A stretch of DNA of 63,923 nt, counting the filler, from Hausera hauseri (Eukaryota): NCBI GenBank assembly GCA_046269625.1. It is 12 parts of 12 records of this genome, joined end to end, with 100 filler letters (N's around TTAATTAATTAA, not from the genome) between each part and the next. Parts side by side here need not be neighbours in the genome. Positions count along the whole stretch, not along the records: positions 1 to 5,101 come from JBJURY010335159.1; 11 more parts are not named here. One strand, written 5' to 3'. Position 1 is the first letter of the stretch; the number at the start of each line of letters is the position of its first letter. Made by a program: the position numbers and the translations under genes. Positions 1 to 50,630 of the stretch are shown piece after piece. The notes beneath the pieces were generated by a model, which saw nothing but the letters and a program-made list of their open reading frames with translations, had not been told where the DNA came from and made no database searches.

Positions 1-330
1 CAATTTCTACTTGCCAATATCCAGATTGTAAATCCAGAGTGGTAAACTATTTTGTTCCTGAGAGCCTGTCTAGAGCTTCTTTTACTGATGGCAATGGGAA
101 AGAATCCTTCATTACAAGATTATTCACTGCTGTATAATAAATACCAAAACGGTGTTTTGTAGTACATTTCTTGTTAACCATGAGGATTGGTGAATACCAA
201 GATCTATAGCTATGCCTAATTATATCAGCTTTGAGCATTTGTTCAACCTCTTTTGTTATCTTAGGTTTCAGTGAATGAGGTGGAGGGTACCATTTTGGCA
301 TCTTCGGATCCTCAAGATCTATCTCTTCAT
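1..330 (-). pseudogene. Gypsy reverse transcriptase, N-terminal part
   Basis: EVEQMLKADIIRHS..WYSPILMVNKK..KDSFPLPSVKEALDRLSGTK*FTTLDLQSGYWQVEI is typical Gypsy RT up to the first catalytic Asp. It has an in-frame stop at 47-49. Confidence 0.92.
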
Positions 331-989
331 TTGAATCGGGCTTTTTCTTAAGTGGAATAGTCCATTATAAAGCTTTTGCCCTACCAGTATCTTCGTCGTC
401 TTTAGCAATAATTGATTTATAGCAGAATAATAATTCATAGAATCGACAATAAGATTCAGGTGAAAACTTAGATTTAACATGAGGTGGTGATTCGGCATAT
501 TTGTAAGGCTTTTCTTCAATAGTTATGGACGACACTCTATAAGTATTATCTAAGTTAGTATAAGCATGAAGTTTGACTGGTTTGACGCATTATTCGCTAT
601 CCTGATCGGCAGAAGGCTTGAGTGTACTCTCGTCAATATATTACTGAGTATTATATTTGGATCTAATATTTCCATTGGTTCGAAATATACTGATTGATCG
701 TCATCTTGTTGAATTTGAGGGTAAATTATTATCTATGTTCTTGGTGGAATGTTTTCGTCTACTAGGATCCATAGCTGTTTTTACGCCTTTATTCGGTCTA
801 CTTTTTAATAGTTTTCTTGTTTGCAAGTCGATTATTACATATGATAGTCTTTTCAGTAGGTGGCAGCCTAAAACTACATCGTCAGTTAGTTGTTCTANNN
901 NNNNNNNTAACTGCGAATTCGTGACGGAAAAATTGTCAAACTATGTGAACTTCTGGGTTTTATTTAAATATCGGTTTTGACATTTGGCC

Positions 990-1130
990 AAAAGCTCCTA
1001 TGCTTCCGGGATCTTTTATTAATGGTGGAAATAACTGTTCTCTTAACGTTTCAGGTATTGAATTATTTTTGACATGCGACATCTCAGAACCTGTGTCGAT
1101 TAAGCATAAACTTCCCAATCTTCAATAGAA
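990..1130 (-). pseudogene. Retroviral-type aspartic protease
   Basis: Minus-strand reading LCLIDTGSEMSHV (DTG at 1097-1089). Not present in the ORF track. Confidence 0.75.
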
Positions 1131-1566
1131 ATTTTGTCAAAGCGTCTCCCTTCTATTCCTGTTCCAAAACAATTTTATGCGGGTTTCGGGCGTTTAGTCG
1201 CCGATATTTTATGACCATTTATTCTGATTTCCGGAGAGGACACTATGTTTTCCGACAGTTGTCTTAGTTCCCCATTTGGGTATAATTTATTGTTTTCGAT
1301 GTTCGATTCCTCCGTTTAATGTGTAATAATTAATGGCTCTCGATTGTTAGTATGCGGCTTTATATTTCGAAAAGTTTGTACCCTTTGATTTTCCCAGCCA
1401 GGTAGTCCAGTCTCTATATTTCGCGATTCTCTTGAAGAGTAAAAATGTGTAGGATCGTCAATGGGATGTCGGTAGCACATTTTTCGTAAAATTCCATACC
1501 GTTTTACCTCTTCATAAGGGTCTTCCAAGTTAATTGTTCTCTTATAGATTTCTGTTTGATATAAAC

Positions 1567-3660
1567 TCATTGATCGCTTATCACCGTCTTCATAGACTGG
1601 AGCGGCAGGGGGTAACATGGGCAATAGTGCCTTAACAATGGAATATGTCTTATGTCTATCTGTTTTAAAGGGGCTTCTTTTCCCTTAGGCTTGTCATCAT
1701 CCGAATTATTTCTTCGTGTTTTAGGTTTTGGGAGCTTCCGCTTGTACAAAAACATAGGTCTCCCTTTTTGTTTGCGATTATGGTAGCGGACATGACGTTC
1801 TACTTCCAACTTCCGTCGGCTTTCCTTGTATGCCTTTAAAAACTTTCCAAAAGGCGTTATTATCGCAGTCAAAATTTTACACGAAAATCAGGTCAACGTA
1901 AATATTTCATACCCATTTATTACTGCTTTAATGACTGCCTTAATTAGTTGGATTAAAAAGGATATAGCTAGAAATTCAGATGCGGCTTGTCCAAAAATTA
2001 AAAATCTTCCCCAAATTTTGTTCAGTATTTCCGTGATCACTGCTTGGTAATGATTTGCACCGAGCAACGATTCCCATTTAGCCTGATATCGGGTATCATC
2101 TACTACTGAGGCCATGGTTCGATTTAACTCGTACTATCATTGTCGTGAAAAAGCAGGGAATTGTCTAAAAGTTTCAATTTCCTTTGGTCTATAAAGACCC
2201 TTCGACGAGGTGTCTTGGAAATTATCATCCGTGATTCCTTTTACGAAATTAGTTCCCGTTAAATTAATTGGAGCAGCAGTAATACCTCCACTTGGCAAAC
2301 TTATCCAATCAGTTTCGCTACGTCTAAACATTGGTTCTCCTGAACTTGCCATACAATCTTTAAGGATTGTTGGCTGAGTCGCATTGTCCACACAATATTC
2401 TAGTAAGTGGCATAGCTAACCGGGGAATATTTTTGTATATAACTGAAAGTACTTGTGTACACCGTTTTTCTTCGACATTGATCGATACATCATTTTTCTC
2501 GCATTCGTAAGTAAACAAGACCTCGCCGGTGACTCGACCGAAAATTCCTTCTCGAATAGTAATTATTGACGATGCTAACTCAGTATTAAGATAAATGAGA
2601 GCTAGTTTTGTTCTCATAATTTTCATGTCTAGTTTACAATTATTCGATATCATCTTGTGGTATAGTTCGGCTATTTCAACTTATCCTTTGCAGTAAAAGT
2701 AATCATCTCGATTTTTCAAGTAATCTTCAAGACGAATGTCTGCATCTCCGGTTTGTAAGTTTTCGCATTTATTTCCGTTTCTGCGACGAAAACTGCTTCA
2801 TACTTAGTGGCAAACATCACTACTTCGCAACGGGAGATCATTACTTTTTTAATAAATTTCAATCCATGAGGGTCGGAGATTAATATGGTTGGCATGGAGT
2901 ATTCTGCTACATCTTCGCGTGTCCTTGTGTTAGTGTTGAATTTATTTACGTATCGCTTACCAGTAGTCTCGTTGAATTTCAATTCCTTGATTTTGATAAA
3001 ATTACAATTCTTTCTAGAGGGAGGTTCCCATATTATCACTGAACTACTGAAAGCACACGTTCCATCTTGTAAATGGAATCTTTGATTTTTGGTATATAGT
3101 TTGGTGACGCTACGAAATATCACTTTCTGCGCTAGAATTTGTGATGCATAAAAGTCTACGACCGCTACGTTTGATTCTAGTCCTTTGCCAGTGTCGTATT
3201 CTGCTCCATTACAGTTTTCATTATGCATGTCTAGCCTTCCGACCATTACTTTATATGCTCTGATTATTTCTTTGTTGCATTTTGCGTTCCATAACATCCC
3301 ACTGTAGTCTTCCTGTTTCTCTGGCCTGCTTAGAATGTTTGCGTTCTAAATTCATCAGAATTAAAGGAGTCGCTGGTTTAATTATCGATGAATGTCCGTA
3401 TATCAGTCCGCAGTGAAAAATGCTACGGGATCGCCGTAACATACACTCCATTCCTTCCAGTAATATTAATTATTGTTGTTGGTATAGAAAATAACTTTTT
3501 TCCATTGTTTCTAGTTTATGCGGTCTGGAGTATTCGTGCACCTCTAAATCCATTAAGGTGAATTTCTGTCCAAATTTAAATTTATCTTAATCATAAGCGT
3601 TAATGGCACCTATCTTTTTCACCAACATCATGAAGGTGAGTAAGTTGATTATCCAATTTG
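1567..3660 (-). pseudogene. Chuvirus-like envelope glycoprotein (env), with frameshifts and stops
   Basis: Motifs appear in the expected order: hydrophobic signal-like WIINLLTFMMLV then AYD*(C); FHCG..GHSS; DGTCAF..IIW; GIFGRVTGEVLFTYEC..V..EEKRCTQVLSV..PLTRIL; C....PMF....W; GLY....I..FRQF; membrane region WGRFLIFG..S..LAISFLIQLIKAVIKAVINGY; basic tail. This matches my recollection of chuvirus G proteins and their endogenous copies. Confidence 0.8.
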
Positions 3661-3665
3661 ATTCA

Positions 3666-5100
3666 TTATTTATTTTCCGTTGTTATGAGATTTCGTAACA
3701 TGTCTTCTAGTCGGTTACTATTACTGAATCGTTTATCTTCTTCCTTATCGAATAATCCTAACCACTTTATTTCTCGAGGCAGTTTTCTAACCGCTTTTCT
3801 TGCTAAGCTTGCAGCTCTATTAAATTCGTTCTCCCAATTGGGATTTGTTCTGAAAGCTAAGAACAGTAATACTTTCTTTAGCTTTTCCATCGTGTTCCCT
3901 CCCCATGACCTTCTCGACCACTGATTCATCGGTTCTGTCACTCTTTGATAACTTAGAACGGAAATTGCTCATCATTTTAGCTGCGCTAAATATCATTTTC
4001 TCTTTTTCGTCCAACATGTCACGATGGATGTTTGAATAATTTACTATGTGTATTAGATTTTTCATTAACGCGCTTAATTCGTCGTTGTCCGCTCTGAAGG
4101 TAGGAATATACATCTATCTCAATTTTCTAATGAATTCTACGTTGTAGTAAACATCTCCTCATATTTTCTTGGGCCTACCTACAGGGAGTTTCTGTTTTGA
4201 AACAGTCGTTGTCATTTCACTTAGTGGTACTAAATTCTTGTCGTACTGTTCCTTGACTTTATCCGTTTGCAGATACTCAAAATACATGGAGGCGTCTCGG
4301 ACTCCCATGATTTGTCCTACATATTTGCCTTACGTATGGCTTCTTCTTTAGTCTGCTCATTAGCTACTGTTACCACTATTCGGTTTGTTTTGTCGGGTAT
4401 AATCCAAACGTCTAGTAACTGTTCCAAGTCGTCTAATATTTTATCTCTAAAATAGAATCAATAATTAACTCATTTGTTCCACCATTGTTCATTAACCATT
4501 CTCTTATGTCCCTCACACAGGAATATGTGGTTAACTCACATTATTTTTCATCCATCCACTCAAATGATATCTTTACTTTCATCGTTTCCTCAGGCTTAGC
4601 TTTTAAGATTTTAGCGTATTTCCTTATCAAAAGTTTCCGCACTGTGCTACAAACTGTATTCTCACAACATAATTTAGTTAGGGTCGAAATAAGTTGCTTT
4701 AGCTTATTTTCAGTAATATTTATGTTAATTAGTTCGATTAAATCTTTTTTAGTTAGCTCTGGGTCCAGGAGCATCTCTACATTTAATTGCCTATTCTGCG
4801 GACGCATTTCTGGTTTATTTAAATGTACTGGAGTTATCGGATTTGTGACATTTACCGCATCTAAGTAAGCATCCGATTCTGGTTCATTTCCGACTTCTGG
4901 GAGTTTATAGTCTTCTAGCGCTCTATTCATTCTTTGCACGTTCTCTCGAACTTCCTTTAATCTCAGTTGTATTTCTTTCATCTGTATGGTCCGGAAACTT
5001 ATTCTGTTTCCACAAGCGTTCTGGATCGTTTTAATATTTCGCCCAGTTCGTTAGCAGGATTGAGTCCCCTTTGATGATAGTCGGATCGCTCGATAATTAC
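3666..5100 (-). pseudogene. Unidentified helical protein region upstream of the glycoprotein
   Basis: Same-strand ORF pieces 4541-4981, 3820-4113 and 3666-3941 run directly into the G signal region. No motif recognised. Confidence 0.45.
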
Positions 5101-5101
5101 A

Positions 5102-5646: not shown

Positions 5647-8600
5647 ATGGTGAGTTTTTTAATTGTGCTCCTCAAATAATTGGTTGATTTTAGATGCGCA
5701 AATTTTACAGTGAATGTTTGGCTCAATTGCACGAGCCGGAAAATTGCCACAGTGTTATGAAGAAATTCTTCTGCATATGTACAACAGGGTTTAGTTTTAT
5801 ATATGTCCTACATGTGAGGTAGTGTGCCAAACCAATTATGAAAACTTTTACAATATCCATAAACAGCACTTGATTTCCATCACCAAGTCGAAAAAACAAA
5901 TATTCAGTACCAATATGCCAATAACGACTTCCGTGTCAAAGGAAAATCGAGGGTGCAGTTCATATGTGTATTGCACATGTACAATACATAACCCTGAGAA
6001 TTGCCACATTGTCATGCGGAGCTATTATGCATACAAATTCAACACAAATACAGGATCATCTATTATATCTGCCCAGGATGTGAGGCTGTATGTGATGTAG
6101 AATACATACAGTTTTATGATAATCACAAACATCATTTGACTGACTTCGCATCAAAGTCAAAGAAGATCATCTTTAATAAACATAAGCCAGTTGCAACACA
6201 GCCTGCAATACCCCAAGGAGTGGCCAGTTGATGCTGCAGCATTAAAGAGTAAATGCCGCAAATATGCCATTGATGCAACTTGTCAAACAACCATCAAGGA
6301 GTTCCTGGAGCACACAAAGACAGGACAGAGGAGATTCTTAAGGACAACATAGCTGAGCTCAAGGCTATTAAGGCTAATATGAAACTTGAGGCCACATACG
6401 TCAATGTTGATGCCGAAGAGTCCAAAAGGGCGTTCAAGACCAGAAATAGACCCATATTTGAAGCCACCAATATAGTAGAATGGCTCCATGAAGAGTTTGC
6501 AAAGCTGATCTGTAAAGCTGATGAGAGCTACAGTAAGAAGAGTGGATGAACTCTGGCAACCATCAAGAGATTGCTTGTATATGTGCACAAGTACTCCCCA
6601 ATGCGGGGCAGTACTTATATTTAGCTTCCGGAATAGATCGCTAATAAAAAGCATGCATCAGTGTCCATAATAATGACAAGAAGTATTTAATGTATTCCAT
6701 TCTCTCAAAACTCGTACCGGATCAGAAACATGCAGCAGATCGAGTTTGGCTATATAATGATCCGAAGCACAATTATGACTTCCTCTATCCTTAGATGCAA
6801 TTAAGAAGTTCAGTCGAATCAACAACATATCCATCAACATCATTGGCTTGGATGAGGAGGACAAATTTTATCCCCTGTAGATATATGATACTGAATTGGA
6901 AGATCATAGGGATCTGCTTCTACTAGACGATGGAAAAAAGAAACATTAAGTTTGGATGAAGAACTTTTAGCGTCTAGTCGGATCCCAAACTACGAATCGT
7001 CATGAAAAACTAGAAATATGTAAACGATGCTTTTCACATTGCACTGGTGATACAGCAATGGACAAACTTGAAGTGCACAAGATGTACTGCAGCAACAATT
7101 ACTGTGTAAGGCCAGAATTTCCCAAGGAATACTACACTGAATTCAAGGAGTTCGAGAAGAAGATCAAGGTCCCAACAGTTAACTATTGCGACTTTGAAGC
7201 TATTCTCTGGCCAAATTTACAGCTGCACTCCCAGTCCTCAACATACCAGCACAAGGGCATACTAATATCATAAACTCTCATCGTATTGGATAGTTTAGCT
7301 CGTCATTAGATAGTTTAGTGAAGAACCTCCCTGCAGAAGAACTCAAGGAGACGAAGCGGTTCTTCTCCACTGTTTTTGACCTCGTCAAGAGGAAAGGCGT
7401 GTTTTCTCATAACTACATAACCTCATAGGAAACACTGGATGAAAATTCACTGCCGGCCAAGAAGGACTTTTACAGTATCCTTTTTGATTGCGATATCAGT
7501 GATTCTGACTACCAGCATGCCCAGAACGTCTGGCATGCATTTCAATGCCGATTATTAGGGGAATAGAGCGATATATACCTCAAGATGGACGTGCTGCTGA
7601 TCACAGATGTCTGAGAATTTCAGAGATGTCACAATAAAGAGCCATGCTTTGGATCGTGCTCATTTCTTTACGGACCAGGGATGAGCTTGGCAGCTCTGAT
7701 GAGATATACCGGCATGAGGCTGTAGATCATCAAGGATTACGACATGATCCTTATGATCGAGAGAGGCATTAAAGGCGGAATATGCCACGCCATTCATCGG
7801 TATAGCGAGACCAACAACAAGAATATGGCCGAGTATGATACGTCAAAGGAATGCTCACATATATCATACCTGGATGCCAATAACTTGTATGGATATGCAA
7901 TGAGCGTCCCATTCCCGTATTATAACTTCAAATGGGTCTAGAATCCTGAAAACATCCCTATATTGGACCTGGATCCCACTGGAGATACGGGCTATATACT
8001 GGAGGTCGATATAGAATATCCGACTTCCATCCACTTAAGGTATCAACAGCTGCCTTTTCTCAGTGAGAGCAGAACTCCGCCCCATGGAAAGCACAAGAAG
8101 CTGCTCTGCCATTTGGGTAATAGGCAGAGGTATGTAGTTCACTACATCAATCTCCAGCAGGCAGTTAGATATGGACTTCGTATTACCAAAATCCATGGAG
8201 CCCTTTAGTTCAGCCAGTTTATGTGGATGCAGCCCTACATAGATAGAAATACGAAGCTGCGGACAAATTCCAAGATCGATTTTGAGAAGGACTAGTTCAA
8301 GCTTTACAACAACTCGGTCTTTGGCAAGACCATGGAGAATATCCGCAACAGGATCAACATGGAACTGGTATGTGACTGGAAGCGAGAAAAGAAGCTTATT
8401 TCAAAGCCTAACTTCCACAGCAGCATCATATATACTAAGAACTTGGTCAGCATCCATATCCTGAAAACAGCATTGGTATTCACAAGCCCATATATGTGGG
8501 TATGGCAATCCCCGACCCGTCAAAGACCCTGATGTATCATTTCCACTACGACATTATGGTCCCCAAGTCCTAGTCCATGCAGCTAATTTATATGGATACT

Positions 8601-9065
8601 GATAGATTCATCTATCATATCCATACAGAGGACATTTATGAGGACATTGTCCAGTTAACAGAGCATATTGATACCACAGACTATCCAAAGGATCATCCCA
8701 ACTATTCATTTGACAATAAAAAAGTCCTTGGGAAATTCAAAGACGAGGTGAATGGAGCAATCACGTCAAGATTAGTGGCTCTTAGATCTAAAATGTATGC
8801 CCTAGACGTATGTGGCCAAATGAAAAAGATGGCAAAAGGGGTTCAAAGGGCTACATTGGCCAAGAAGATTAGTTTTCAAAACTATGTGACAGTGATGCAG
8901 GAGCAGACTCACATTATATCGAAAATGAAAAGAATCCAATCTATGGATCATAACATCCAAACTGTCACCTTACAGAAGAAAAGTCTAGATTGGATGGACG
9001 ACAAGAGGCAGGTCTTCAGCGATGGAATTCAGACATTACCTTACGGGTACGTGACATTATTGTAA
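5647..9065 (+). pseudogene. Polinton/Maverick-type protein-primed DNA polymerase B, decayed and internally deleted
   Basis: YCDFEA (ExoI), KRKGVF, GIKGG, YLDANNLYGYAMS (motif A), LEVDIEYP, KLYNNSVFGKTMENIR (motif B), YMDTDRF (motif C), GKFKDE, LRSKMYA, KGV, DDKR, TLPYG. Multiple stops and frameshifts. Confidence 0.92.
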
Positions 9066-11098: not shown

Positions 11099-11182
11099 AA
11101 ACTATTGTTTTATAATTGCATGACAGTTCTACGGAGTCCGGTAATTTAAAGTCAAAGGTAGAAATATACCAACGTCAATTAT

Positions 11183-13600
11183 TTGAACAAAATTTCCATT
11201 TCTCTCTATGATGCAACACGATTGATATCACCCGAATTTACAGCCAAAACACGGAGGCATAAACGGAGGGTGAAGGACAGAATGAAACATCAGATGGTTG
11301 CCAACGTCAGTGGTACACGATTTGAAACAGTGAAACGAATTTTGGAAACTCTTGGTTTCAAACTGGATGATGACGAATCAAACAAATCCAGTTGCCTGAT
11401 ATGGACTGATAGCATTATATCACAAGAAAAATTGTCGGATTTGAAATCATATCAACGTATCAATCATTTCTTAGGAATGTCGGAAATTAGCAGAAAGGAT
11501 TGCTTGGCTAGGAAGTTTGCAAAGATGCAAAAACTGAGACCTGATGACTATGACTATTTTCCAAAGACCTGGATACTTCCTCAGGAAATGAATCTCTTTC
11601 AAAAATATGTCAAAGAAACCAAAGATCCGAAACGGAAGAAATATTTTATTCTTAAACCAGCCAATGGTGCAATGGGATTAGGGATCAAAGTGTTATCTGA
11701 AGACGATCCAAATAAAGTGACGGACCCATCCATTGTTCAAGAATATATTGAACGACCTTTCCTGCTTGATGGGTACAAAAATGATTTACGGATATACGTT
11801 CTAGTTACTTGCTGTGATCCATTATGCGTATTTCTGTTTCGAGAAGGTTTAGTCAGATTAAGTACAGAGAAGTATGTACGACCATCAGATCCTAAATCAG
11901 AATCTGTATTTATTCATTTGACAAATTATTCAGTCAACAAAAAGAACTCAAAGTATGATAAGGGTTTAGACGAGTATACAGGCAGTAAACGATCGTTATC
12001 GGCCTTAATGAATATCCTTAGCCACCAGTATCGTATTGATACTGGTTCGTTAATGAAGCGCAGTGTCGATATGATTGTCAAAACGTTGTTGTTGGTCCAA
12101 CCGCATTTAGTTCACAACTACAGAATGTGTCGAGCAGGCCAGAATCCATTTTCCGATAGTGTCTGTTTCGAAATACTTGGTTTTGATATACTGCTCGATG
12201 AATTCCGACGTCCATGGTTGCTTAAAGTTAATCGATCACCAAGTTTCGGTATGGATGAAGCTCTCGACAGAAAAGTTAAGGGGGATTTGCTAACAGACAC
12301 AGTGAGACTTGTTAATATTCGAACATCAGACAAAGAGAGGTCGGAAAATTTTGAGAAAAAGAGAACTGCAAAGAGGCTTACTCTCGCAGCTGCACGGACA
12401 AAAATAGATACACAACTTGATCAAGAATCTTTGAAAAAGCGTAGAGAAATCGATAAAAAGAAGCAAAAATTGATCGATTTGCTAGGAAAACTAAAATATA
12501 ATTCTGCCAGAGAGTATGTTGAAAAGCGTCATTCTGGAAATTTTATTCGAATATTTCCTACAGATGATAAGGTTGCCTTCGACCATTATGGCGAAATACT
12601 TGTCGATAGTTTCACGTTGTTTAACCAGCTCAATAATCAGTCAGCACAGATTGATGCAAATCAGGCTGTTCAACAAATGATACAGTGTCTTATTCAGAAT
12701 CATTATAAGGAAGATATTTTGGAAAAAATACGGGCATGTGAAAAGGACGAAAATCGCATTCTGGAAAAATATGGATTTTCACCAAATTCAGAACAAACAA
12801 CAATTTTACCGGAATTCTATGACACATCATCCGATGATGAGTCATCGTCGTCAGATGAGCCTGAAAGTCTGCATACAAAATCAAGTTATTCTCGCATTGA
12901 TGTTACCAAAGATTCTCATAAAAATACGGTAGAACCAAAGCGCGTAGCATCGTCTGCATCTCTTACTATCATTTGACAGTCACAAAGACATCCAAAATCA
13001 ACTGTATCTGAAAACAAAGAAAAAAAGAAGCCAGATTCCAAATCCAATATAGGCCACCAAATCTCCTCAACAACCTGTGAAGATTCATATTTCGAAGCCT
13101 ACGTAAAAGACGATGATTATAACTCAACCAAGTCCCAACGAAATGTATACATAATGACAAAGAATTAAAATGAAAAAGTTAGAAAAACTCAATTTTCTGA
13201 ATCATCTTTGCACGATGAATTACTAAAAATTGTTCTAGCAGCATAAAAGAATCTCAATATGAGATACTCTGCTCAGTTTGAAGAAAAGACAAAAGCACTG
13301 CTACCCCAGATTCAAAATAGTTGGGATTCTTATCGTTAATCAGTTCTTACGTATAGGCTTGTAACATTGAATTCCAGAAAACGACAAAAAAAAATTCAAC
13401 AGTCAAAATAACGTCGAGGCAATTATTAAAGAAAATTTTCAATATACTAATGATCTAAATGCTGTACGATTAAACCTATTGTTAAAAAAAATTTATAGTC
13501 ATCTGTTGTGAAATCTTGGTCACGGCTTGATTCAATGCTTTTCTAATTGTAAATCGTGGCAATTGATTTTTTTTGTTGTGAAGATCAAATTAAAGCATTG
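11183..13600 (+). pseudogene. TTLL7: Tubulin polyglutamylase TTLL7-like. Long intronless ORF to 12976, then a frameshifted C-terminal remnant
   Basis: YQRINHF.GM.EI.RKD.LAR, FPKTWILP, KPANGAMG.GI, DLRIYVLVT.CDPL, HLTNYSVNK, YRMCRAGQ...SVCFEILGFDILLD, NIRTSDK. Catalytic ExN is read as KVN. Downstream remnant NLGHGLIQCF near 13520. Confidence 0.85.
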
Positions 13601-22389: not shown

Positions 22390-24520
22390 TTGGACGAAGT
22401 TGAAGGAAGAATCACCCAAATAGAGCAAAAGGTGAATGATAATAGTATGGGTTTAAATGAATTGGACGAGAAAACTGATCAACTTGCACAAGAAGTTGGC
22501 AACTATTCTAGACAACAAACTATTCGACAGCAAACTATTGATAACATAGCCAAATTATATAGAAATAGAGAACAGATAGACAATAATGAAAGACAAGTAA
22601 GGCAAAGGTTAAACGATATGCAAAATCAAGTAACAGTTATAGTAAACGAACAGGAACAAATTCAAGAAGGAAATAATTGTACTAGAAATTAAAGAGACGT
22701 TGATGCGAGATATAGATCGATTGAATGAACGTCTCGAGCAAGTAAGGACAGAGAAAGTAATAACCCGACGACAGGAAGAAGTACACACACCTGAATTCTC
22801 AGTAGAGGTAGGTTCAATGTCTTGCGAAACCTCTGACATCGATAGCGGCAACATGGAGCCACAGGGGGATAATCAAGAGCCATTGGCTCACCAAAACAGA
22901 TATAACTGTGACCCTAAAAATAATAATGTCACATATGATTACAATGAAGCACGAAGAGAAGAGAAATATCAGACACTTCTCCGTCTTCACACGTATGAAG
23001 GACGAGTATCGGACTTGGAAGACTTCTTGGATGAATATGATTCTCTGGCTACAGACATGCATTGGAGTGACGCGAAGAAAATATCACTTCTACCAGTACA
23101 TGTGAATAATGATTTAAGAATGGCAATAACGCGTCTACCCCTACGAGTAAACGAAACTTGGTTGCAACATAGAGAAAGGATTTTACAAAACCAGCAGGTC
23201 AATATCCAAGAGAACCGATATTTGAAATTCCAAAATTGTAAGCAGAAACCTAATGAAGAAGTGTTGACTTATATAAATAGATTTAAAACAGCAATGACTA
23301 GATATTTTGGTCATAAAGCAAATGCTTTTAGTGCAATGATCATGAAGCAATTTGTACTTGGACTTTTACCACCTTTAAAAGAAGGAGTTAAGTTTCATAC
23401 TGCCACAAATATTAAAGAATTGATAAATTACACTCGAAAAATGGCAACACGGATAGATGAGACACCGTTATGGGCTAACCAAACGCAAATAGCAGCAGTT
23501 ACTACGACACCATTACTAGTTAGACCAGACGTATCAAACCGTAGTAATTCACCCTGGAGAAACTCTTCAAGAAGCCAAAGTCCTAATAGTCAAAATACTA
23601 ATACCCCCCAGCGAAGTAATACCCCGGAGAGAGGAAATTTTAGCCAGTCATCCAGAAACTATAATCAAAGAAACACACAACATCAGCAAAATAGGGGAAA
23701 CTATGATGATCGACAGCGAAACGATAATAGATACGATAGAAAACGAGGCTTTTCGTGAGACAGAAACGATAACAGAAGTCGATTTCCTAGTAGAGAAAGA
23801 TATAGCAACGATCGAAACTTTGGGCGTTACGAGGATAGAAACCTTTATTATAAACGAGATGATAGTCGAACACAATATCTACGGGATGATAATCGAGCAC
23901 GATATCCACGAGACGATAGTCGAACAGGATACTCAAATAATCGATGGGAAGAGGTAAGATCTAACTATCCTAATGATAGGCGAAGTGAGAGCCGCGAAAG
24001 GTTTAGAAGAGAGGATAGCCGTGAAAGATATAATAATTTTAATAGAAACGATAATAGAGAAAGAGATAATCGACGGGGTGATAGTATAGAAAGATATAGT
24101 CCTAGAAACGATAATCAAACTAGTTATAATGACTCAAGATTAGGCAACCACGACAGAAGACGCGACTACACTCCACTTCGACGAGAAACGGATAGGTATA
24201 ATAGAAATCCTAGCCCATACCCTTCAAGAGACAGAAACCGAACTCCTTCCCCAGGACCAAATGGTAATAATAATAAATATACTCGATCGTCAGACTACAA
24301 TTTTAGACGAAATGAAACATCATCAAATAGGAGCGTTTCTCCGTATAGGTATGATAGGAATTCGACGTCACAATATTCCAATAATTTCAATGAGCGAAAA
24401 TCGGATTCGACAATACCATCTTATAGTAGTCCTACGAAAGAAAAAGGAAATTTGTCAGATAATAGAAAAAATAATAACGACGAAAGAAATGCCTCGCCTC
24501 GTCGTTCAGTAACTTTTAAT
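22390..24520 (+). pseudogene. Retrotransposon Gag: coiled coil, capsid-like core, long Arg/Asp/Asn/Ser-rich tail
   Basis: YEGR..DLEDFLDEYD.LA....WSD..KI..L, Q..NE.V..Y..RF and QFV.GL.P are Gypsy Gag core motifs. The low-complexity tail is broken by stops and frameshifts. Confidence 0.8.
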
Positions 24521-26573
24521 GAACAAAGTAAATCAGCTTTTACGGGTTTGTTAATGTCAAAACCCGTAGCAGAATCTTATCAACTAACACCTGAACTGCC
24601 AACCAATAGTACTATCCTGGAAAAACCCTTCATAACTAAAAAGCAATTGGATCAGGAAGAACAAAAAGTACCAGATATCCAAAGAAATACACTTCCATAC
24701 ATGTTATGGCGAGAAACTAAAGAAATTAGAGATTTACTTTCAAGCTTTGTAGCAATAGATAAAATTAACAAACAAGAACAAGAATTAAAAATTAACCGAA
24801 TAAGAATAGAGAATATTGAAGGAGACCTGATAATTGAATTAGAAGATATATATAAAGAAAAAGAAAAATGCTATGAAAACCTTAGACAAATACTCTGTGG
24901 AAAACTTATAGTTGGAATAGAATTGCCATGGTTGTTTAAAGAAATACAATTGAAGGAAACCGATATTTTTGGTACGTTTAGTGTAGATCAGAATTTTAAT
25001 TTACCAAATGATCAATGGAAAAGAGAAGATACATTGTTACAACAATTGAATAATCTACGACAAGAGTATCAGATTAAACTTAACCGTCAAGGATCTCCAT
25101 ATTTCATTTTTCCAAGTAGACCTTTATATAAGAACGATGGATATCCCCAACGTGAAATGACATGTAATACTACCTTAATTCCAGAGGCAGTATTAGAGCG
25201 CATGGACCTAAGTATTGTTCAGAAATAGGATGAACTGTTTGAAGACAAGAAAATTGACAGAATAGAGTTCGCGGACATCGCTGAACAAGGATTGATTTGT
25301 ATGGGAGGCACTGATAAACTCTACCTTAAGAGGACTGATATTCGAATAAAAAGAAAGGATCACCGTGTGCTATAATTATCAATCAAGGAGAAGCCAGATT
25401 GCAAATTAATAATAGAACAGTAATAGTCTCCAAGGAAACTAAGATACTCCCTAATTGTCCTTATGAAGGAGATTATCAGATTCAACCTTTGGATAATTGC
25501 CCGGTATATTTGATACAATTGCTTAAGAATACACCCGCGTTAGCTGTGGATGAACCTGTGACACAAGATAGAGAAATAATTCTTACTGGTAGATGTATAA
25601 CCAAAGGAGACCAAACAGGACTTACTCAGGTCACTGCCAAAAATCTGGAAGGAAAGACAATCCTTAATATTCATGTATATCTAAATATACCGGATAATAC
25701 TAAGTGTACCTAATATAGCAGACAGTTCAATCCACAACGACAGGAACCGGTAAGCGAATTCATGAATAAATATTTATCACGAAAAGTGATCATTGAACGT
25801 CAGTTACCAGAACTGTTAAATACATTGAATATAAATCCAAAAATCTAACTGCCTTATACGATTTGGAACAAACAAACAGGAACTACAAATGTTTGGACCT
25901 ATATAACGGCCATAATTCGGAAATAGTGGCACAAAGATGTTTAGATGAATACCAAAAAACGATGCTAGTGGAATATAATGTACCATGGGTAATAGAAAGT
26001 CGAAAGACGTTACGAATAGCTTTTCCAGCAATAGGAGAATTAGGGAAAACTGAGGAAGCCAGGGCAATCCCGATAATTGAACCAATAACTCAAAGATACC
26101 CATATATGGATGCTGATGAATATTCACAGAAACTTGTTAGAAATAGACCAACCGGAGAATGGATAGACCCGTATGATGATAGATTAGTTGCACCCTTTAC
26201 CCAACCAACGGCTCCACTACAACGATCAACGCTATTTGAAAATATACGAGATACAATGCAACCGAGTACATCCCAGAAGGAACCCCAAATAATAAACGAA
26301 GATGAAATGTTTAAAATTTTAGACTATGATCTTATATCTACCTCAGACACTTTACAACATTCGGAAACTACATTGCTACCAATCGGAAACCAAGAGTTTA
26401 TTCCAGAAATCGATATCCCACCAGGATCTATAGTATACGGCGAACCTCTGGAATTAACAAGCGGAACAGTTAAAGCCAAATTACAAATGTTCAATTCAGC
26501 ACCTAATGAGGTATGGGAAGCTTTACGACAATATGAAACACTACCATTAATCAATCGAATAGATTGCGCGCCA
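24452..26573 (+). pseudogene. Unidentified coding extension continuing from Gag
   Basis: Same-strand ORFs 24452-25228, 25399-25713 and 25863 to the contig end. No protease or RT motif found. Confidence 0.55.
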
Positions 26574-30757: not shown

Positions 30758-33480
30758 GACTGTCGGAAAAGCTGATCACGTACGATAAACTACAAGGACG
30801 GCCAGGTATAAAAATAAAGATACAAGGTAGATGGAAAGACTGCTTATTGGACACAGGAGCACGGGTGCACGTGATGAGTAAGAAGATTTTTGAAAGACTG
30901 ACAGATATCCGGCTGGATAAATCCGATATCATATTCCATTGTGCAAATGGTAGCCCCTAGATTGCATAGGTGAACCATCCGTAAATGTGGAACTCAAGGG
31001 TTTACAGAAAAGTGTAACTTTCATAATAATGACAGACATATCACCAGAAATAATTAAAGGAATGGAACTGCAAAAGACTTTTGGAATCGAATTAGGTTGG
31101 AGACAAAAGATGGAGATGAACAAAGATATGATGTATGCAAGTTAAATGCAAAATTTGGTCGAAAAGTGACAAATGAAGAACGATTCGAAAGAGTGAAGGA
31201 GATTCTGCGCATAAACAAAAACCCAGTGGTATTGGATATAGTACGGATAAACCAAGAAATCTTCATGGCTGACAAGTGGGACGTCGGCTGTACAACATTG
31301 ATCAAGCGTAGAATAGACACCAAAGGCTCACCATTTATCATCAAACCACATAGATAACCAGTGAATCTAGAAAGTAAAATCGATGAGACCATCCAAAACC
31401 TATGGTAAAACAGTATCATCAAGAAATGTAATTTACATTGGAATACTCCGATTATCTGCATCTGAAAGAAAGAGAAAAACGATGTCAGAATTTGTCTAGA
31501 TTTTAGAGAGTTGAACATCATTACAGAAAGACAAGCGTATCCCGTGCCGAATATGATGGAAATAATGAATAAACTATATGAGGCAAGATATATTACATCA
31601 ATCGATTTGGAAAACGCATACTACCAGGTCAAATTAGAGGAAGAATCCAAGTTGAAAACATCTTTTTTGAATAAACAGGGGCAATTTAATTTCAACAGAA
31701 TGCCTTTTGGAATAGCAGCAGCGCTGGGTACATTTCAAGAACTAATGATCAAATTAGTGATATATGTTGAACAAACTATAGTATACCTAGACGATAGATT
31801 GGTCTTTTCGAAGTCTTTAGAAGAACATTATATAATACTAGAAAAAGTACTAGATCAGATCAAAAAGACGGGACTGAGAATAAATGCAGAAAAATGCCAC
31901 ATCTTAAAAAAGGAGGTAAACGTCTTGGGACACTTTGTGAATAACAAAGGAATAAAAACGGATGCCTGAAAGCTGGACGCCATCAGATCCTTCGAGAAAC
32001 CGAAATGTGTAAAAAGTCTGAGAAGCATTTTGGGATTTGCAATTATTACAGCAGATTTATTCAAGGATACCCCACAAAGGCTAAGTCATTAGAACATATG
32101 TGCGGACTGAACAACAAAAAACTGGTATGGACCGAGACTTTTAACAAAGCATTTGAAGCAGTGAAGATGGCTTTGGCGTCGCCACTAATATTAGGGTTCC
32201 CAGACTTTAAAAAGGAATTTATTCTGGATAGTGATGCTAGCTTCGATACAATTGGAGCAGTATTATCACAGAGAGACAGCGCCGGGCATGAAAGCGAGAT
32301 TGCATACGGGTCACACGGAATAAATAATCAGGAAAAGGGCTATTGCATTACACGGAAGGAGTTTCTGGATATGTACTACTTCTGTCAACATTTTATTCAT
32401 TATTTCTATGGAAGAAGATATACAATGAGAACGGACCACAAGGCCAATACCTTCATGTTGAAAACAAAAATGCCGGTAACAGCACAACTCAAAACCTGGA
32501 TAAACTGTCTATCAAGTTTAGACATGACTGGAATACAGGAAAGGCACAGATCATGCAAACGCCAACATATTATTCCGGACCAATTGCGATACATGCAGCC
32601 AATGCTTATTATCTCACGAACATGCCAAAACATAAGGTCAAGACTCGAAGGATAAACGCAGTTGAAGCACCAGAAGCATATCCATATCAAAGAGGCAGCA
32701 AAAAAATTGAAGAAATAAAAGAATAAACCTCAAAAAAGAACATTGGAAATTCTTAGTGGAAAATGGCATAGTGAAGACAAAAACAGGCAAGATATGGATA
32801 CAAACGGATAAGAGGAAAGAAATGATAAAGCAATGTCACGCCATACTATTCTATGCCGGAATAGAAAAAGTAACAAAATACATAAGCAATAACTACGATA
32901 TGACAGACATGAAAGACACCGTAAAGGAAGTGATTGGATCTTGTGAGGCATGTCAACGAAACAAGACAGTGACAACGGGTGTGAAGGAAGAGACCCTGAG
33001 ACTCTCTGCAAACGAACCATTCGAGAAGATCTACATTGACACTTGTGGACCGTTAAAAGAAACCTGGAGAAAGAAAATATATTGGCCATCATAGACCAGT
33101 TTAGCAGACACATATAGCATTATCTGCTATTGCAAAACACGACGAAGTACAACAAAAGACATGGTGCTAAAGATATGGATTCTCAAATTCGGCGCACCGA
33201 AAGAGATACACATTGATTGCGGTAAAGCATTTGAATCTAAGGTCCTTAGAGACATGACAGCGTCAATGGGCATCAAGATGTGCTGTTCAAGCCTATATGA
33301 TCACAAGACCAATGGCATAGTGGAAAGGCAATTCCGGACAATTAAAGATTATATAGGTGCGACTCTTCATGATCGACGACGAACCGATTGGGAAGAGATA
33401 CTACCGGAGATAGAATTCACATTGAATGCAACAGTTCAGAAAACAACAGGATAGAGCCCAGCAGAAATAATACGATGGAA
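30758..33480 (+). mobile_element. Decayed Ty3/Gypsy pol (PR-RT-RNase H-IN)
   Basis: LLDTGA; CLDFRELN, IDLENAYYQ, RMPFG, YLDD; FILDSDAS..GAVLSQ, TRKE, RTDHKA; H..(Y)..CEACQ, IDTCGP, DCGKAF, NGIVER. The domain order is Gypsy. Confidence 0.93.
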
Positions 33481-39569: not shown

Positions 39570-41961
39570 TCACTCCCCCTGGCAAGACGAAGACTATGAA
39601 GAGAAGAAAATGAATGGAAATTATAGTAGGGAAAAGAAAAACTTAAACCTATTCGGTTTTGGTACATGTTAGACGTTGGACTCTATCTATGAACTTCTCC
39701 CTGCTATAAGTGCTAAACGTCACATGACGTGATCTGTTAGATGTTGCTAGTGCTTGTGGGGCTGTTCGAGGGAAAGAAACTGTGGATTTTGTGGTGTTTC
39801 TGGAGGATGTTTCATGAAGAGGTGAAAATGGCGAAGAAACTGAAGAGTGAAGTGGGTCAAGCGAAAGAGGCGAGACTGGAGGTGGAGGCAAATCGTGCGT
39901 TGACGGTGAAGTGAGTAGTGCGCGTGCAGGTGATGACAGCGAAGTGAGTGGTGAATGAACAGTGAACGATGACGGAAGTAAAAAGGATTTATTGTGACTC
40001 TACTGTTGCGACGGCTCAAAATTATCGAGGAAATTAGATAATGGCTCGCGAGAAGAGAAATTAGAGTCAGGATTTAAAACAAGGCTGTTATCCTGGTCAT
40101 CATCAACGAAGAATTCTGGCTTAAGTTTAGAGATATGTACATTTTGAGGTTTGTCCTTGCGTAAAATAGTAGCGGTGTGCGAACAAAGGTTTAGTAATTT
40201 GTAAGGGCCAACGTATTAAGGCCGAAAACCTGACGGTGAGGGGTCCTTCAGCCATACAAACTTGGCTGAGTATATGTCCTCTGGAATATAAGATTTGTCT
40301 TTATTTATAAGACGGCAAAATGCATTAGAGTTTACCTCTATAAAGTGGAACTGTGCTGCACGAATGACTTCATCTGATGGACTTTCAACCAGATTGGAGA
40401 GCTCAAATAGTGCACGAATTGGTGTCCCAAAGAGAGCTTCAGCCGGTGCACAACCGGTGGTAGTGGATGGCGTGTTACGACAACCAAGTAGAACAAAAGG
40501 AAGAATCGAAGTCCAATTACGATTGTTGTTTTCCAGGATTTTTAGAGAAATATTCACGGTACGGTGAAATCTCTCAAGAAGGCCATTTGCTTGGGGATGG
40601 TACGGCGTCGTCTGAAAGTGGGCTATCCCCAAGTGCTTAACTAGAGATTTAAAAAGATCAGCTTCAAATTGCGGACCCTGGTCCGTTATGATGTGACGTG
40701 AACCAAAACGGCTGACCCATATCTTGATTAATGCATCTGCTACTGAGTCAATGTTGGTTGATCGAAGCGAAACGGCTTCAGGCCAGCGGGAAGCGCGATC
40801 CATCATGGATAAGATGTATTGATAGCCGTTGTCGGATGGCAAAAAACCGACAAGATCCAAATGCACCGTGTCAAAACGGGACGTACAAGGGAAGTGGTAA
40901 AATGGTGGTTTTAGGTGTTTGTGACCTTGTATTGCTGGCATGCTGCACATCCCTTGACCCAAATCTGTACATCTGTACGCATAGTTGGCCATACAACGTG
41001 GCGTTGCAGTAGACGAAATGTGACTTTTAAACCCGAATGATGAAGAGAGTGAAAGTTATTAAAAGCTGTCTTTTGTAGCGATGGTGCAAGAATGATCTTC
41101 TTGTTGGTCGAGTTGGAAGTGTCATAAGCGATGCCATCAATGATTTCAACAGATTTAAAAGCTTGGAGAATGTCAGATGATGGCTGTTTGCTTCTCAGGA
41201 CCTCAAGGGAGAAAATTGGCTGAACTGTAATTGAGTTAACCGACCTCGAAAGAAAATCAGCTACTAAATTTTCGGTGCCTGAAATATATTTCATGGAAAA
41301 GTTAAAAGTCGACAGGTATGATAACTGTCGTTCTCGTCTGGGTGATGGCTGTTTCAAAGTCATTATATAAAGTAAAGGCTTGTGGTTGGTTTGGATGATA
41401 AATTGACGTGAAAGAAGCAAGTGCTTAAAATGCTTTACCGCAAAAACTACAGCCAAGAGTTCACGGTCGAATGTGGAGTATTGGCTTTTTGGTTGCGTGA
41501 GCTTTCGGGAATAAAATTCTAATGGTTCATCGACGCCATTGTATATTTGGTGTAATATCGCACCAGTTTCTGTGGTAGAGGCATCGGTAGTTAGTATTAG
41601 TTCGGCGTTTGGTTTTGGAAAGGCCAAGATTTCCACAGTTTTCAGACCTTGACGAAGGCGATCAAATTGGTTTACTAGATCGGGAGTCCAGTGGATTAAT
41701 TGTCTTTTCTTCCCAGATGAGAGGTGTGCGAACGGTGCCGTTAGTTCGGAGCAGTGTGGGACGGATTTGTGTACGAAATGCAATGTCCCTAGAAAACTCC
41801 TTCATCGGTAGTTGTAGTTGAGAACGTTACATTTTTTAATTGTTCTAAGCGATCAAGCTGGGGTGAATGCCCTTCAGGAGTAAATATGTGGCCTAGGAAG
41901 TTTACGCGTTTCTGGAAGAAATTGCATTTGTCGAAATTAATTTGCAGGTTACTTTGATGCA
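39570..41961 (-). mobile_element. Ty3/Gypsy 3' part: end of RT, RNase H, integrase, Ser/Pro-rich tail, PPT
   Basis: FLGH; LTTDAS..GAILHQ, YSTFDRELLAV, HKPL; HSLHH..CAACQ; HLDLVG, TDQGPQF, NGLLERFHR; GPY. PPT AGGGGGAG at 39580-39573, with a probable LTR start at 39569. Confidence 0.92.
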
Positions 41962-43039: not shown

Positions 43040-44890
43040 CTGTGAGCACCACACATTCATCTTCATCTGTCCAATCTGGGGTTTTGTGCTGTTATTGCGA
43101 TAACATGGTGCAATTTTCGATTAAACTATTGTTTCCAAATGATTCAGGAAATCATGCACACAGTTCCAGCCGTGAAACATGTAATACTGCGGTTGACCTG
43201 CAGCTTTTATCGGGACAACCAACATTCCCACGGCAAGTGGAACATGTTTTTGATCGTATACGTTGTGCCGTGGTAGGATTCTCAATAGCAGCATATATCA
43301 CATATGTTGTACTGTCCGTTTTATACCTATCACTAAATTGCAGTTCCTTTTTGAATGGCATGACGTACATTGTTGTTCCTGATGCATTCTGTTTGCACAG
43401 CGTCACATGTTTTTCCCACGTGGTTTCTGATCTGAATCCATGCAGACATGTAGGACACCATTTACAACGTATTTATTTTTGGACAAATTGATGGTAATCC
43501 ATGTTCAACAGTCGGTCCAAATTTGTCACGGCCAAGTAATGAAAATTTTCTGCCTGCTTCGTCAATAACAAATTTAATGTACATCCATTCGGTTTCCGAC
43601 TTCGATAGATTATATCTATATGTGGATTCTTGTAAAATTTTCTCGTCTGCCGGTATTTCAACTATTGTCTTGTACCGGAACACGTTGATTGACAGTGTCG
43701 GATTACGCAGTTCAAATGTTGAAATGGATTTTAGTTTCATCGGCATCCAGTTTTCGTCGAATTGCGATTCGAAAAATACTGCCGATACTAACTTGGACGA
43801 TATTCACTGTCTGTTCACTTCGTCATATTTTAATACCGCCAGAATACTGTAAATAAAACAGTAATCATCGTCCGTGTTTTTTACATTCACTACCTAATAA
43901 GAGTGCTTTAGAGCTTCAGGTGTCGGTATGAATAAACGTCCGGACAGGTAAATCATGTCACTCGACTTTGTTATAATAAAACCGAGTGACGATTTTTATT
44001 ATTCGTCAACTGCATTATTATTCCACAACTGCCTTTTTCGGTGTAATTGACGATGTTTTCGTCCAGCTTTTCGCCCATATCGGCAATGAAATCTTTGGAA
44101 TATGGAACTGTTCGATGTGACAGGAACCACTGTTTCCTGTTACCCTGCAGATTCTCAAATTCTGCAAGTGCATAATATTGCCCTTTGCAGTTGTGGTGTT
44201 TGAATTTCTCCACTTCGGTTTCTAACCGGTTGCGCACATAACCGGGTACATGCCTGAGTTGAGTTGCTGATTTCGCCGACATGTTAACTTTTATATCCAG
44301 GGACGATCTGTTTAGGTCGTACTTGACAGTAATGGGCGGTTCCTGTTGATGCTGCTGCTCCCGCCGCTGATGTTCTGTATTGCTGCTTTGCAGGTATTCG
44401 TCAAGACTTGTTGATGTTTGACATTTCCTGCTTGTTGAGGGAATACTGCTTTTTGCTGCCTCCATTAATATTTCCTTTTTGGACCCATGAAGCTGGTTCA
44501 AGTGTTCCTTGTGCTCATTATAAAATTGTTCATAGTTGATTTCATCAACTACAGAACAACCGGGACAGACGTAGGCCCGTTTACTGTGCACCGTTATGTG
44601 CCATAGTACTACTCCATTTTACTATGGCAACCTGCAACGTTGTGCACTTTACTAGTACAATACCTTGGGTACAAGGAGCAATGCACATGCATCATCTTAG
44701 ACCGATTAACGGTCCATGATTATACTTGTGCACCTCATAAAAATCGGCGTATAGACAAGGGGCCGAAATACTACCGCACGTTGGTCCCAAATGAGTCCGT
44801 GCCAACGAAGTAATATTTAGCCATTTGCTGATAGCACTGATCCTGCTCCACATGTATACGCGAGACGCAATACATGGGATAATTAGTGCA
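43040..44890 (-). pseudogene. N-terminal half of Maverick PolB, close relative of 52750-54430
   Basis: Near-identical peptides (ITVKYDLNRS..DIKVNM, HNCK.QYYALAEFENL, NVKNTDDDYCFI, RNPTLSINVFRY). Truncated at a GC-rich junction. Confidence 0.88.
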
Positions 44891-48972: not shown

Positions 48973-49203
48973 GGGACTTCCGGTTATCCAGGACGACCAG
49001 GAAAAAAAGGAATTAAGGGAGGTAAAGGTGAAATTGGAAAGGATGGTCTGGAAGGGGAAAGGGACATAATAATAAACAAGTTAGTCATCAAGTGAGTCAA
49101 AAAGGATATATCGAACCTAGAGGAGACATTGAAGAAGAAGGATTAATTGGACAAAAAGGACATGTTGGGAATTTTGCAAATAGAAGTTCAAATGGTGAAA
49201 AGG
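48973..49203 (+). other. Collagen-like Gly-X-Y repeats
   Basis: GTS GYP GRP GKK GIK GGK GEI GKD GLE GER (10 triplets), then a degenerate second run after a frameshift. Confidence 0.8.
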
Positions 49204-49235
49204 ACGATAATATGACTAGAGTTGGAAAAATAAGA

Positions 49236-49451
49236 AAACAGATAATCATATGTTGCGGTGGACGAAATTACGTGGTAGACGCAACTGAGGTTCAGTCGTA
49301 TCGTGGCCTAACCGGAATAATAAGGAAAAATCTGAGAATAAACGGGGAATTCAGAACATTATATGCTGAAAAGCCGCTATGGATCGACGAAGCAGTGAAA
49401 AGCATAAGACATGGTGCAACACTTCATTTAACGTTCCAGTTAAAAGGAGGA
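49236..49451 (+). other. Ubiquitin-like domain in frame with Gag
   Basis: About 72 aa ending FRTLYAEKPL...IRHGATLHLTFQLKGG; compare ubiquitin QRLIFAGKQL...IQKESTLHLVLRLRGG. Confidence 0.75.
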
Positions 49452-50630
49452 AGCGAAATAACAGCGGACAAACTCGAAGAGCGTATTGCCGAACGACGAG
49501 GACCCATAAATGAATTGGCTTTGATTCGAAGTAGATTGATGGATATAAATTTGAACAAACATGATTATAACGTATTCCATCAAAGTGATAAGAAGGTTTT
49601 TTCGAGTGTCCAAGAAGAACTGTGTATATTGACCACCGCAGCCAGGAAACGAAAAAGAAAAGATAATGTAACATTGCTAGAGAATGAAATAGAAAAACGA
49701 GACGAGCAGAACAAAAAAATCAACACAATTATCCATGAAAGAAGCTTAATAGAAAACAAATCGACAATTAACACAGTAAGAGGTGCGGATAGTGGTATAA
49801 AGGAAAAGGTTATATTGCCGAAATTGCAGAAGTTAGAACTCCCAAAGTTTGGCGGTATAGTCACAGAGTATGATAAATGGAAGAGAACGTTTGACACCTG
49901 CGTTCATAAGACGTCAATGTCTGACATCTACAAACAATTGCAATTAAATCAATGCCTGTACGGAGAACCGAAGAGATTAATTGAGAACTTTGACCTGTCT
50001 GAAGAAGGCTATAAGGCTGCAATGGGAAAACTTGACTCTTATTATGGGGGAGAACAACGGTGTTTTGCCGCCTTCATGACCGAAGTGATGCGTTTTAAAC
50101 CAATCAGGGAAGAAGACATCATAGGCCCAGATAGATTTGTTGCTTTGTTGGATGGCATAACAGTAAGATTGTAAAATTTGGGAAGGAAAGAAGAATTGGG
50201 TGGAGGATTATTATATAAAAGTCTTGTAGAAGAACTCCCAGAATCTATAGTATTATTATGGGAGAGACATGTAGCTGAAAAGAAGCTAAATCGAACGGTT
50301 GAAGAATTGAAAACTTGGGTGGAGTCGGAAGCGAGCATACGGAGGAGCACCATTAAAAGAATTAGAGGTATCAACGTCTTTAATACATTTGAGGCTATAT
50401 CGCCGTCAAGATTTGGAAATGAAAACAAATTTGATCAAACAACAACTAACAATCGTTCCAGAGTTGAAAATTATTAGAATAATGCAACGTTCGGAATCAG
50501 GAGACATGACAAATAAACACGAAAGAGATTTTACATAGATAGACAACCTAATCAAAATGAGACTCGAGTTCAAGATAAGATGAAGACAGGTAACAGCGTT
50601 AAAACATCAGATAAGAACGAGGAAATGCTT

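Follow-up and report, generated by a model that had tools for sequence, protein, structure and literature searches.

The 63,923-nucleotide (nt) stretch of DNA from Hausera hauseri analysed here (GenBank assembly GCA_046269625.1), hereafter the window, is made up of short contigs in a chain, with spacers of the form N44-TTAATTAATTAA-N44 between them. The element under study is a Ty3/gypsy retrotransposon copy that occupies the whole of contig 1 (JBJURY010335159.1, bases 1–5101), with its coding sequence on the minus strand. Read in that direction, the contig encodes a helical and ubiquitin-like module, a signal-like segment, a class III glycoprotein (G) with a membrane anchor, a tail, a retropepsin (protease, PR) and, cut short by the contig end, a Ty3/gypsy reverse transcriptase (RT). 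G thus lies upstream of PR and RT on one strand, as an initial annotation of this DNA had proposed, and the signal-like segment, the anchor, the PPAAPVY motif, the DTGS motif and the RT start were all found at the positions it gave. In coding order, the features are as follows.

4770–5050, minus strand: 5′ part of the polyprotein region, within a 169-codon open stretch (4541–5050)
4373–4768, minus strand: helical and ubiquitin-like module, split over two frames, recognised with a profile of relatives
3680–4370, minus strand: broken coding region at the position of the BCL2-like domain of planarian Burro elements (see below), with a GRPKK motif at about 4179–4165
1840–3670, minus strand: class III (chuvirus G/herpes gB-type) glycoprotein, recognised by PF24664, phmmer and profile
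About 3655–3601, minus strand: internal signal-like segment of G
About 2016–1890, minus strand: membrane anchor of G
1120–1840, minus strand: basic, proline-rich linker, predicted cytosolic tail, with PPAAPVY at about 1612–1592
850–1120, minus strand: retropepsin, DTGS with its D at 1097, recognised by the motif and a profile match of the C-terminal half
574–798, minus strand: spacer domain between PR and RT, homologous to that of relatives (profile independent E-value (iE) 1.2e-7)
2–436, minus strand: N-terminal part of a Ty3/gypsy RT, 145 codons, the contig ending before the catalytic motif

Pfam family PF24664 (Monjiviricetes_fusion) matched two minus-strand frames of the glycoprotein region (E = 7e-18 and 1e-16). 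A HMMER (phmmer) search of 1.84 billion representatives with one G frame returned 48 matches, the best at E = 1.6e-26, unlike word-seeded homolog searches with G, which gave none. A G profile of 648 positions, built from 11 intact relatives, tiled the window in four collinear pieces (3670–3251, 3285–2740, 2746–2390 and 2337–1840) that spanned profile positions 9–631 at 61–116 bits per piece; the best score in the reversed control was −0.3 bits. The AlphaFold model of one relative, P0002 (mean predicted local distance difference test score (pLDDT) 77.8), matched chuvirus glycoproteins (E = 2e-40) and herpesvirus (HSV) gB (E = 4.5e-14). Because of these model matches, and with the fold taken from P0002, we assign the glycoprotein family to the class III fusogens. 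The Pfam match, the four-piece tiling and the P0002 fold agree with the chuvirus-like identity first suggested for G.

G trees were built from two unjoined segments (32 and 38 rows), rows below 12 bits or below 80% of the length having been dropped. The window grouped with polyprotein-embedded G, apart from free-standing G proteins of 650–750 amino acids (aa), with support of 98/96 for the C-terminal G segment and 92/89 for the middle one. Its G segments are 24–42% identical to those of relatives L001, L002, P0001, P0003, P0007 and P0049.

Between anchor and protease lie 306 codons, compared with 132–392 in 13 relatives. The PPAAPVY motif within this linker fits neither of the canonical patterns PPxY and P[TS]AP and was given no weight as a budding motif. 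By eye, the linkers that follow the anchor in L002, P0006 and P0009 show PPxY- or PSAP-like motifs, which are possible candidates for budding signals of the endosomal sorting complex required for transport (ESCRT).

The 10-N gap at 898–907, initially placed between protease and RT, in fact lies inside the protease, with the catalytic motif on one side and the C-terminal half on the other. From 895 on, the C-terminal half fits the protease profile of the relatives, and the spacing from DTG to glycine is 73–76 codons versus 68–72 in seven relatives; the N-terminal half alone gave no Pfam or profile match. The spacer domain occupies the position of the dUTPase-like domain of Burro (label from PMC6431247), and no Pfam match to dUTPase was obtained. 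The RT piece matches three Protein Data Bank (PDB) sequences, namely Ty3 RT (E = 1.4e-9), Ty3-G Gag-Pol and one 'enzymatic polyprotein', and is 37–45% identical to the RTs of seven G-carrying relatives versus 25% to a different gypsy RT from elsewhere in the window. Judged from these N-terminal 145 codons, the RT is of Ty3/gypsy type.

Upstream of G, the initial annotation had noted an unidentified open reading frame (ORF), possibly Gag. We rejected Gag as a candidate: Pfam gave no Gag match in 3600–5100 of the contig, and part of the ORF is the helical and ubiquitin-like module common to the relatives. The module profile, built from six segments of five relatives, matched 4768–4486 (profile positions 16–112, iE 3.6e-7) and 4505–4373 (positions 106–151, iE 0.0027) collinearly, with −1.1 bits as the best score in the reversed-sequence control; an earlier four-sequence profile had given 0.0012 and 0.0085. 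The ubiquitin label comes from the corresponding part of L002, which matches Pfam ubiquitin weakly (E = 0.0025, below the curated cut-off). The segment 4770–5050 matched no Pfam family at E ≤ 0.05, and ESM Atlas gave nothing informative on either upstream piece (best score 0.82, for the 4770–5050 part). By eye, the GRPKK motif of the broken region next to G is also present in P0007 and P0049. Several relatives carry a BCL2-like domain before the signal segment, the Bcl-2 match of P0002 being weak (E = 0.001).

This copy is heavily decayed. The cheapest read-through of 2–5050 passes 17 stops and 10 frame changes, at a cost of 37 versus 85.6 ± 5.1 in shuffled sequences (0 of 200 as low). The linker between G and PR contributes two stops and one frame change. 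Compared with local shuffles, every region is more open, a cost as low being reached in none of 200 shuffles for four regions and in two of 200 for the linker, whose frame holds two stops in 178 codons versus 9 and 15 in the other frames. Since it is more open than its shuffles, the linker has the character of coding sequence that has decayed, rather than that of a long terminal repeat (LTR) or spacer. Contig 1 contains no direct repeat longer than 18 nt, so no LTR pair separates G from PR, which agrees with the initial annotation. The copy is a pseudo-element, incapable of making a polyprotein. G alone carries six stops and three frame changes, which, together with the multi-copy nature of the family (see below), makes it hardly credible that the host has domesticated such an element as a fusogen gene at this locus; the one point in favour of that idea is the general precedent of env co-option.

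Pfam scans covered 17 of the 48 G matches (the top ten, the other long ones and three short ones): G and protease occur in one chain in 10, G–PR–RT–RNase H in four, and a Gag or CCHC match lies upstream of G in three. These chains are predicted proteins; the layout was checked at the DNA level in two metagenome loci, L001 and L002 (2 of 67 pattern matches), and locus searches found no relatives in viral contigs or prokaryote genomes. L001 holds a stop-free single ORF of 3,426 aa with an open 5′ end. L002 holds one of 3,703 aa that runs from a Gag-like start through two CCHC motifs, a ubiquitin-like domain, G and two proteases to RT, RNase H and integrase. Both encode G–PR–RT–RNase H–integrase in one ORF, and neither contains direct repeats of at least 40 nt. 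The full PR–RT–RNase H–integrase order is present in L001, L002, P0003, P0007 and P0019, and gag upstream of env in L002 and P0010. Relatives L001, L002, P0001, P0003, P0007 and P0049 have the same order as the window but are intact, and one and the same set of relatives is matched, in that order, by the window's G, spacer and RT. Several relatives differ from the window in having two to five protease motifs before RT, compared with one. A hydropathy scan of L002, P0003 and P0007 found a single signal-like segment and a single anchor ahead of the protease, a topology that would leave Pol cytosolic; the signal segments of L001 and P0049 fell below the threshold of the scan.

The single-polyprotein layout is thus supported at the family level, because L001 and L002 are stop-free ORFs in DNA and the nearly open interval from G to PR in the window fits them. 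The single polyprotein that was initially proposed holds for these relatives; in the window copy, 17 stops and 10 frame changes break the frame. We regard it as unlikely that the ancestor instead used separate ORFs in the same order, with a stop of its own closing env and a frameshift, read-through or splicing giving access to pol (a three-ORF GAG-ENV-POL). Such an arrangement would account for the frame change and two stops between anchor and protease in this copy, and P0002 and P0035 do end at or shortly after the anchor; moreover, the catalogue of such elements in PMC13524379 treats GAG-ENV-POL as an order of ORFs with gaps of ≤2000 nt, the word 'polyprotein' being absent from its available text. 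However, the linker is broken no more densely than G, and the nearest relatives by G and RT (P0003, L001, L002 and P0001) run from G into protease without a stop.

Some further features of the relatives were observed. Multiple protease motifs stand in one polyprotein in P0049, P0012 and L001, with up to five before RT in P0049, which at 4,844 aa is near the ORF size of Burro. P0003 (HBK71150.1), a gypsy G–Pol polyprotein of 2,627 aa, was deposited as a hypothetical protein of a Flavobacteriaceae metagenome-assembled genome (MAG) and is probably animal DNA in the MAG bin. In both intact loci a separate downstream ORF (L001:10617-12107 and L002:12085-13473) matches the RNase_T (DEDDh) exonuclease family, at E = 1.4e-5 and 1.1e-3, respectively.

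Contig support for the stretch was drawn from one sequencing run, which is possibly the source data and so not independent. At ≥80% identity, 9,233 run contigs fell on 1–5101 (300 at 99% or above, 811 at 95–99%, 3,003 at 90–95% and 5,119 below 90%). Because run contigs of many identity classes cover all 30 bins, the whole layout belongs to a large, diverged, multi-copy repeat family; the summed contig depth of 171–30,324 per bin is not usable as a copy number. Run contigs matched the stretches 3216–3684 and 3760–4234 with 0–1 differences, which argues against all the breaks being assembly errors. No RNA data set containing the stretch was listed, which says nothing on expression.

These data also bear on a very improbable reading, that G and pol are chance neighbours, a chuvirus-derived G fragment having inserted into an unrelated gypsy pol or been fused with one during assembly. 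The contig is of short-read type with an N gap, the family is very repetitive, the only supporting run may be the source data, and one run contig links 894 to 3240, skipping 2345 nt; in insects, chuvirus G fragments often adjoin broken gypsy pieces without capture (PMC10084718). Against such a junction, the gap does not separate G and the linker from the catalytic DTGS; it falls within the protease and is crossed by three run contigs that leave out the ten Ns. Diverged run pieces cover 1515–1921, 1106–1493 and 1078–1441, and single-contig joints such as 1354–1545 and 1397–1542 link them across the uncovered stretch. Given the same-order matches of G, spacer and RT to the same relatives, together with the stop-free ORFs of L001 and L002, the reading as chance neighbours or misassembly is largely refuted.

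We therefore conclude with considerable confidence that contig 1 is a decayed Ty3/gypsy copy with the order X–env–protease–RT, likely derived from a Burro-like element read as one Gag–X–Env–Pol polyprotein. On established principles of membrane-protein biogenesis, the cytosolic Gag–X part of the intact ancestor would be made first. The internal signal segment would then send the following chain into the endoplasmic reticulum (ER), where signal peptidase would presumably cut after the signal and free the N-terminus of G, and the ectodomain would fold into a gB-like trimer on the lumenal side. With transfer halted by the single anchor, the tail, protease, RT, RNase H and integrase would be made in the cytosol; the protease would afterwards release the Gag and Pol products. 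Such a scheme would yield Gag, Env and Pol in equal numbers and keep Pol attached to the membrane during budding, and the enveloped particles might be able to enter other cells.

Several observations weigh against this interpretation. This copy has no single ORF, and Gag, RNase H, integrase and LTRs all lie outside the 5.1-kb contig. None of the run contigs listed reaches from G to PR, and one connects 894 directly to 3240. The linker between G and PR is longer than in 12 of 13 relatives and shows no detectable similarity to the relatives' linkers past its start, and in each of the two G trees the window sits on a long branch. A BCL2-like domain was not detected in the window with Pfam, two profiles built from relatives or hhalign (probability ≤0.2%); decay may hide it in this copy.

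A glycoprotein ahead of pol has precedents among LTR retrotransposons. Nematode endogenous retroviruses reportedly have a continuous gag-env-pro-pol ORF; in the Anakin elements of mosquitoes, G is reportedly placed after pol. The nematode elements are metaviruses with an RNA-virus glycoprotein before pol and, by the title of the report, nematode-restricted (Sacco et al. 2022, J Gen Virol 103:001739, via PMC13524379). Anakin elements carry a chuvirus-type glycoprotein in a BEL/Pao element (Dezordi et al. 2020, PMC7642597), whereas the window element is gypsy. A survey of arthropods found no clear gypsy capture of chuvirus G (Dezordi et al. 2023, PMC10084718), which explains the impression behind the initial annotation that such captures are mainly a matter of mosquito BEL/Pao elements.

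The closest description is that of the planarian Burro elements, in which an in-frame Gag-Ubl-BCL2-env-PR-RT polyprotein includes a mononegavirus-type fusion protein, and of which decayed copies with stops and frameshifts exist in Dugesia japonica (Arkhipova and Yushenova 2019, PMC6431247). The window shares with Burro/GYPSM1 a mononegavirus-type fusion protein that follows a Gag-side accessory region and precedes PR, a ubiquitin-like domain upstream of env, a spacer domain between PR and RT, and high copy number. It differs in the BCL2-like domain that directly precedes env in Burro; because this domain was tested for and not found, the window element is Burro-like and not Burro proper. In the strict sense, Burro has an ORF near 5,000 aa, an element length above 30 kb, a planarian host and MATH, BIR and ankyrin domains, and the window was set beside it by description.

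GAG-ENV(gB)-POL gypsy elements have since been catalogued in Platyhelminthes, Nematoda and Bryozoa, with nine flatworm and ten bryozoan elements in the set (Chary and Hayashi 2026, PMC13524379). The window resembles these gB-type errantiviruses in its gypsy pol, its gB-type env and the position of env before pol: its class III env has both a signal segment and an anchor, precedes pol on the same strand, and is not separated from it by an LTR. By eye, in an unscored comparison, its domain I–II is nearer to six Schmidtea 'Platyhelminthes_C1a' rows than to the nematode rows beside them. The catalogued elements are intact, unlike the window, and the available parts of that paper discuss neither a single polyprotein nor the name Burro. 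The layout is thus already described in flatworms and nematodes, and the window is a new, divergent and decayed member; in view of the Burro report (PMC6431247) and the three-phylum catalogue (PMC13524379), the initial premise of an unrecorded order, with the env of gypsy elements invariably 3′ of pol, is not supported.

As found, then, the locus is one more broken, divergent copy of a published layout. The family is of interest since the parts of the literature available held no experimental test of the threading and cleavage of a Gag–Env–Pol polyprotein or of entry by a lone gB-type protein, a mechanism that Chary and Hayashi call unknown (PMC13524379). For questions of threading, cleavage and entry, the intact L001 and L002 are better material than the window.

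Additional membrane modules were found in the relatives. In L001, L002, P0003, P0007 and P0049 the same ORF continues past integrase with a signal-like segment and a final anchor; in P0019 the signal-like segment is present and the anchor not clear. The modules in the two intact loci are as follows.

L002:9994-10959 and L001:8969-10036: post-integrase module with signal-like segment, beta-rich repeats, Thr-rich stalk and anchor
L001:4739-5326: third, shorter module of the same make-up, between the proteases

The post-integrase modules of L001 and L002 are homologous (E = 2e-11), and they resemble those of P0003, P0007 and P0049 weakly. Structures retrieved with a low-confidence model (mean pLDDT 47.9, from three sequences) are mostly of the fibronectin type III (FN3) kind, with a best E of 3e-7 and template modelling (TM) scores of 0.2–0.3. 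On this model, the module is possibly a second envelope protein, and it is a candidate for the missing attachment function. The word 'Fibronectin' is absent from the available text of PMC6431247, and the literature search gave no paper on an FN3-like module. The module was not found elsewhere in the window, its expected position lying past the end of the contig. As a tentative and rather doubtful extension, the lineage might build a two-glycoprotein envelope from one ORF, a gB-type fusogen with a tandem FN3-like candidate attachment partner, and the window's family, in a fast-evolving animal maybe outside the three recorded phyla, might share it.

Elsewhere in the window, 22390–26573 contains a Gag-like ORF, a long Arg/Ser/Asp-rich tract and further domains, 47–62% identical to P0035. 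Since P0035 goes on to a gB-type G, we read this region as the 5′ half of a second giant family with env inside the polyprotein, present in the genome alongside the first. A TTLL7 gene at 11162–12976 consists of one 604-codon open frame without intron; it is 42–50% identical to its counterparts in molluscs, hemichordates and vertebrates alike and 66% identical to one contig, and no named flatworm appears among the 120 TTLL7 matches listed. The host is an animal with a long branch, perhaps a flatworm to judge by the type of element.

Broken ORFs at 6274–9065, 43971–44618 and 53876–54532 resemble, by eye, Polinton-type DNA polymerase B, and inverted near-copies at 43073–44532 and 52972–54409 accompany the Polinton-like ORFs. 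Transposon pieces at 31253–32655, 40069–41953, 49032–50174 and 60327–61622 comprise two further gypsy pol fragments, a DUF1759 (BEL-type Gag) ORF and a Tc5/pogo-type transposase. An Rfam scan of the window identified one tRNA.

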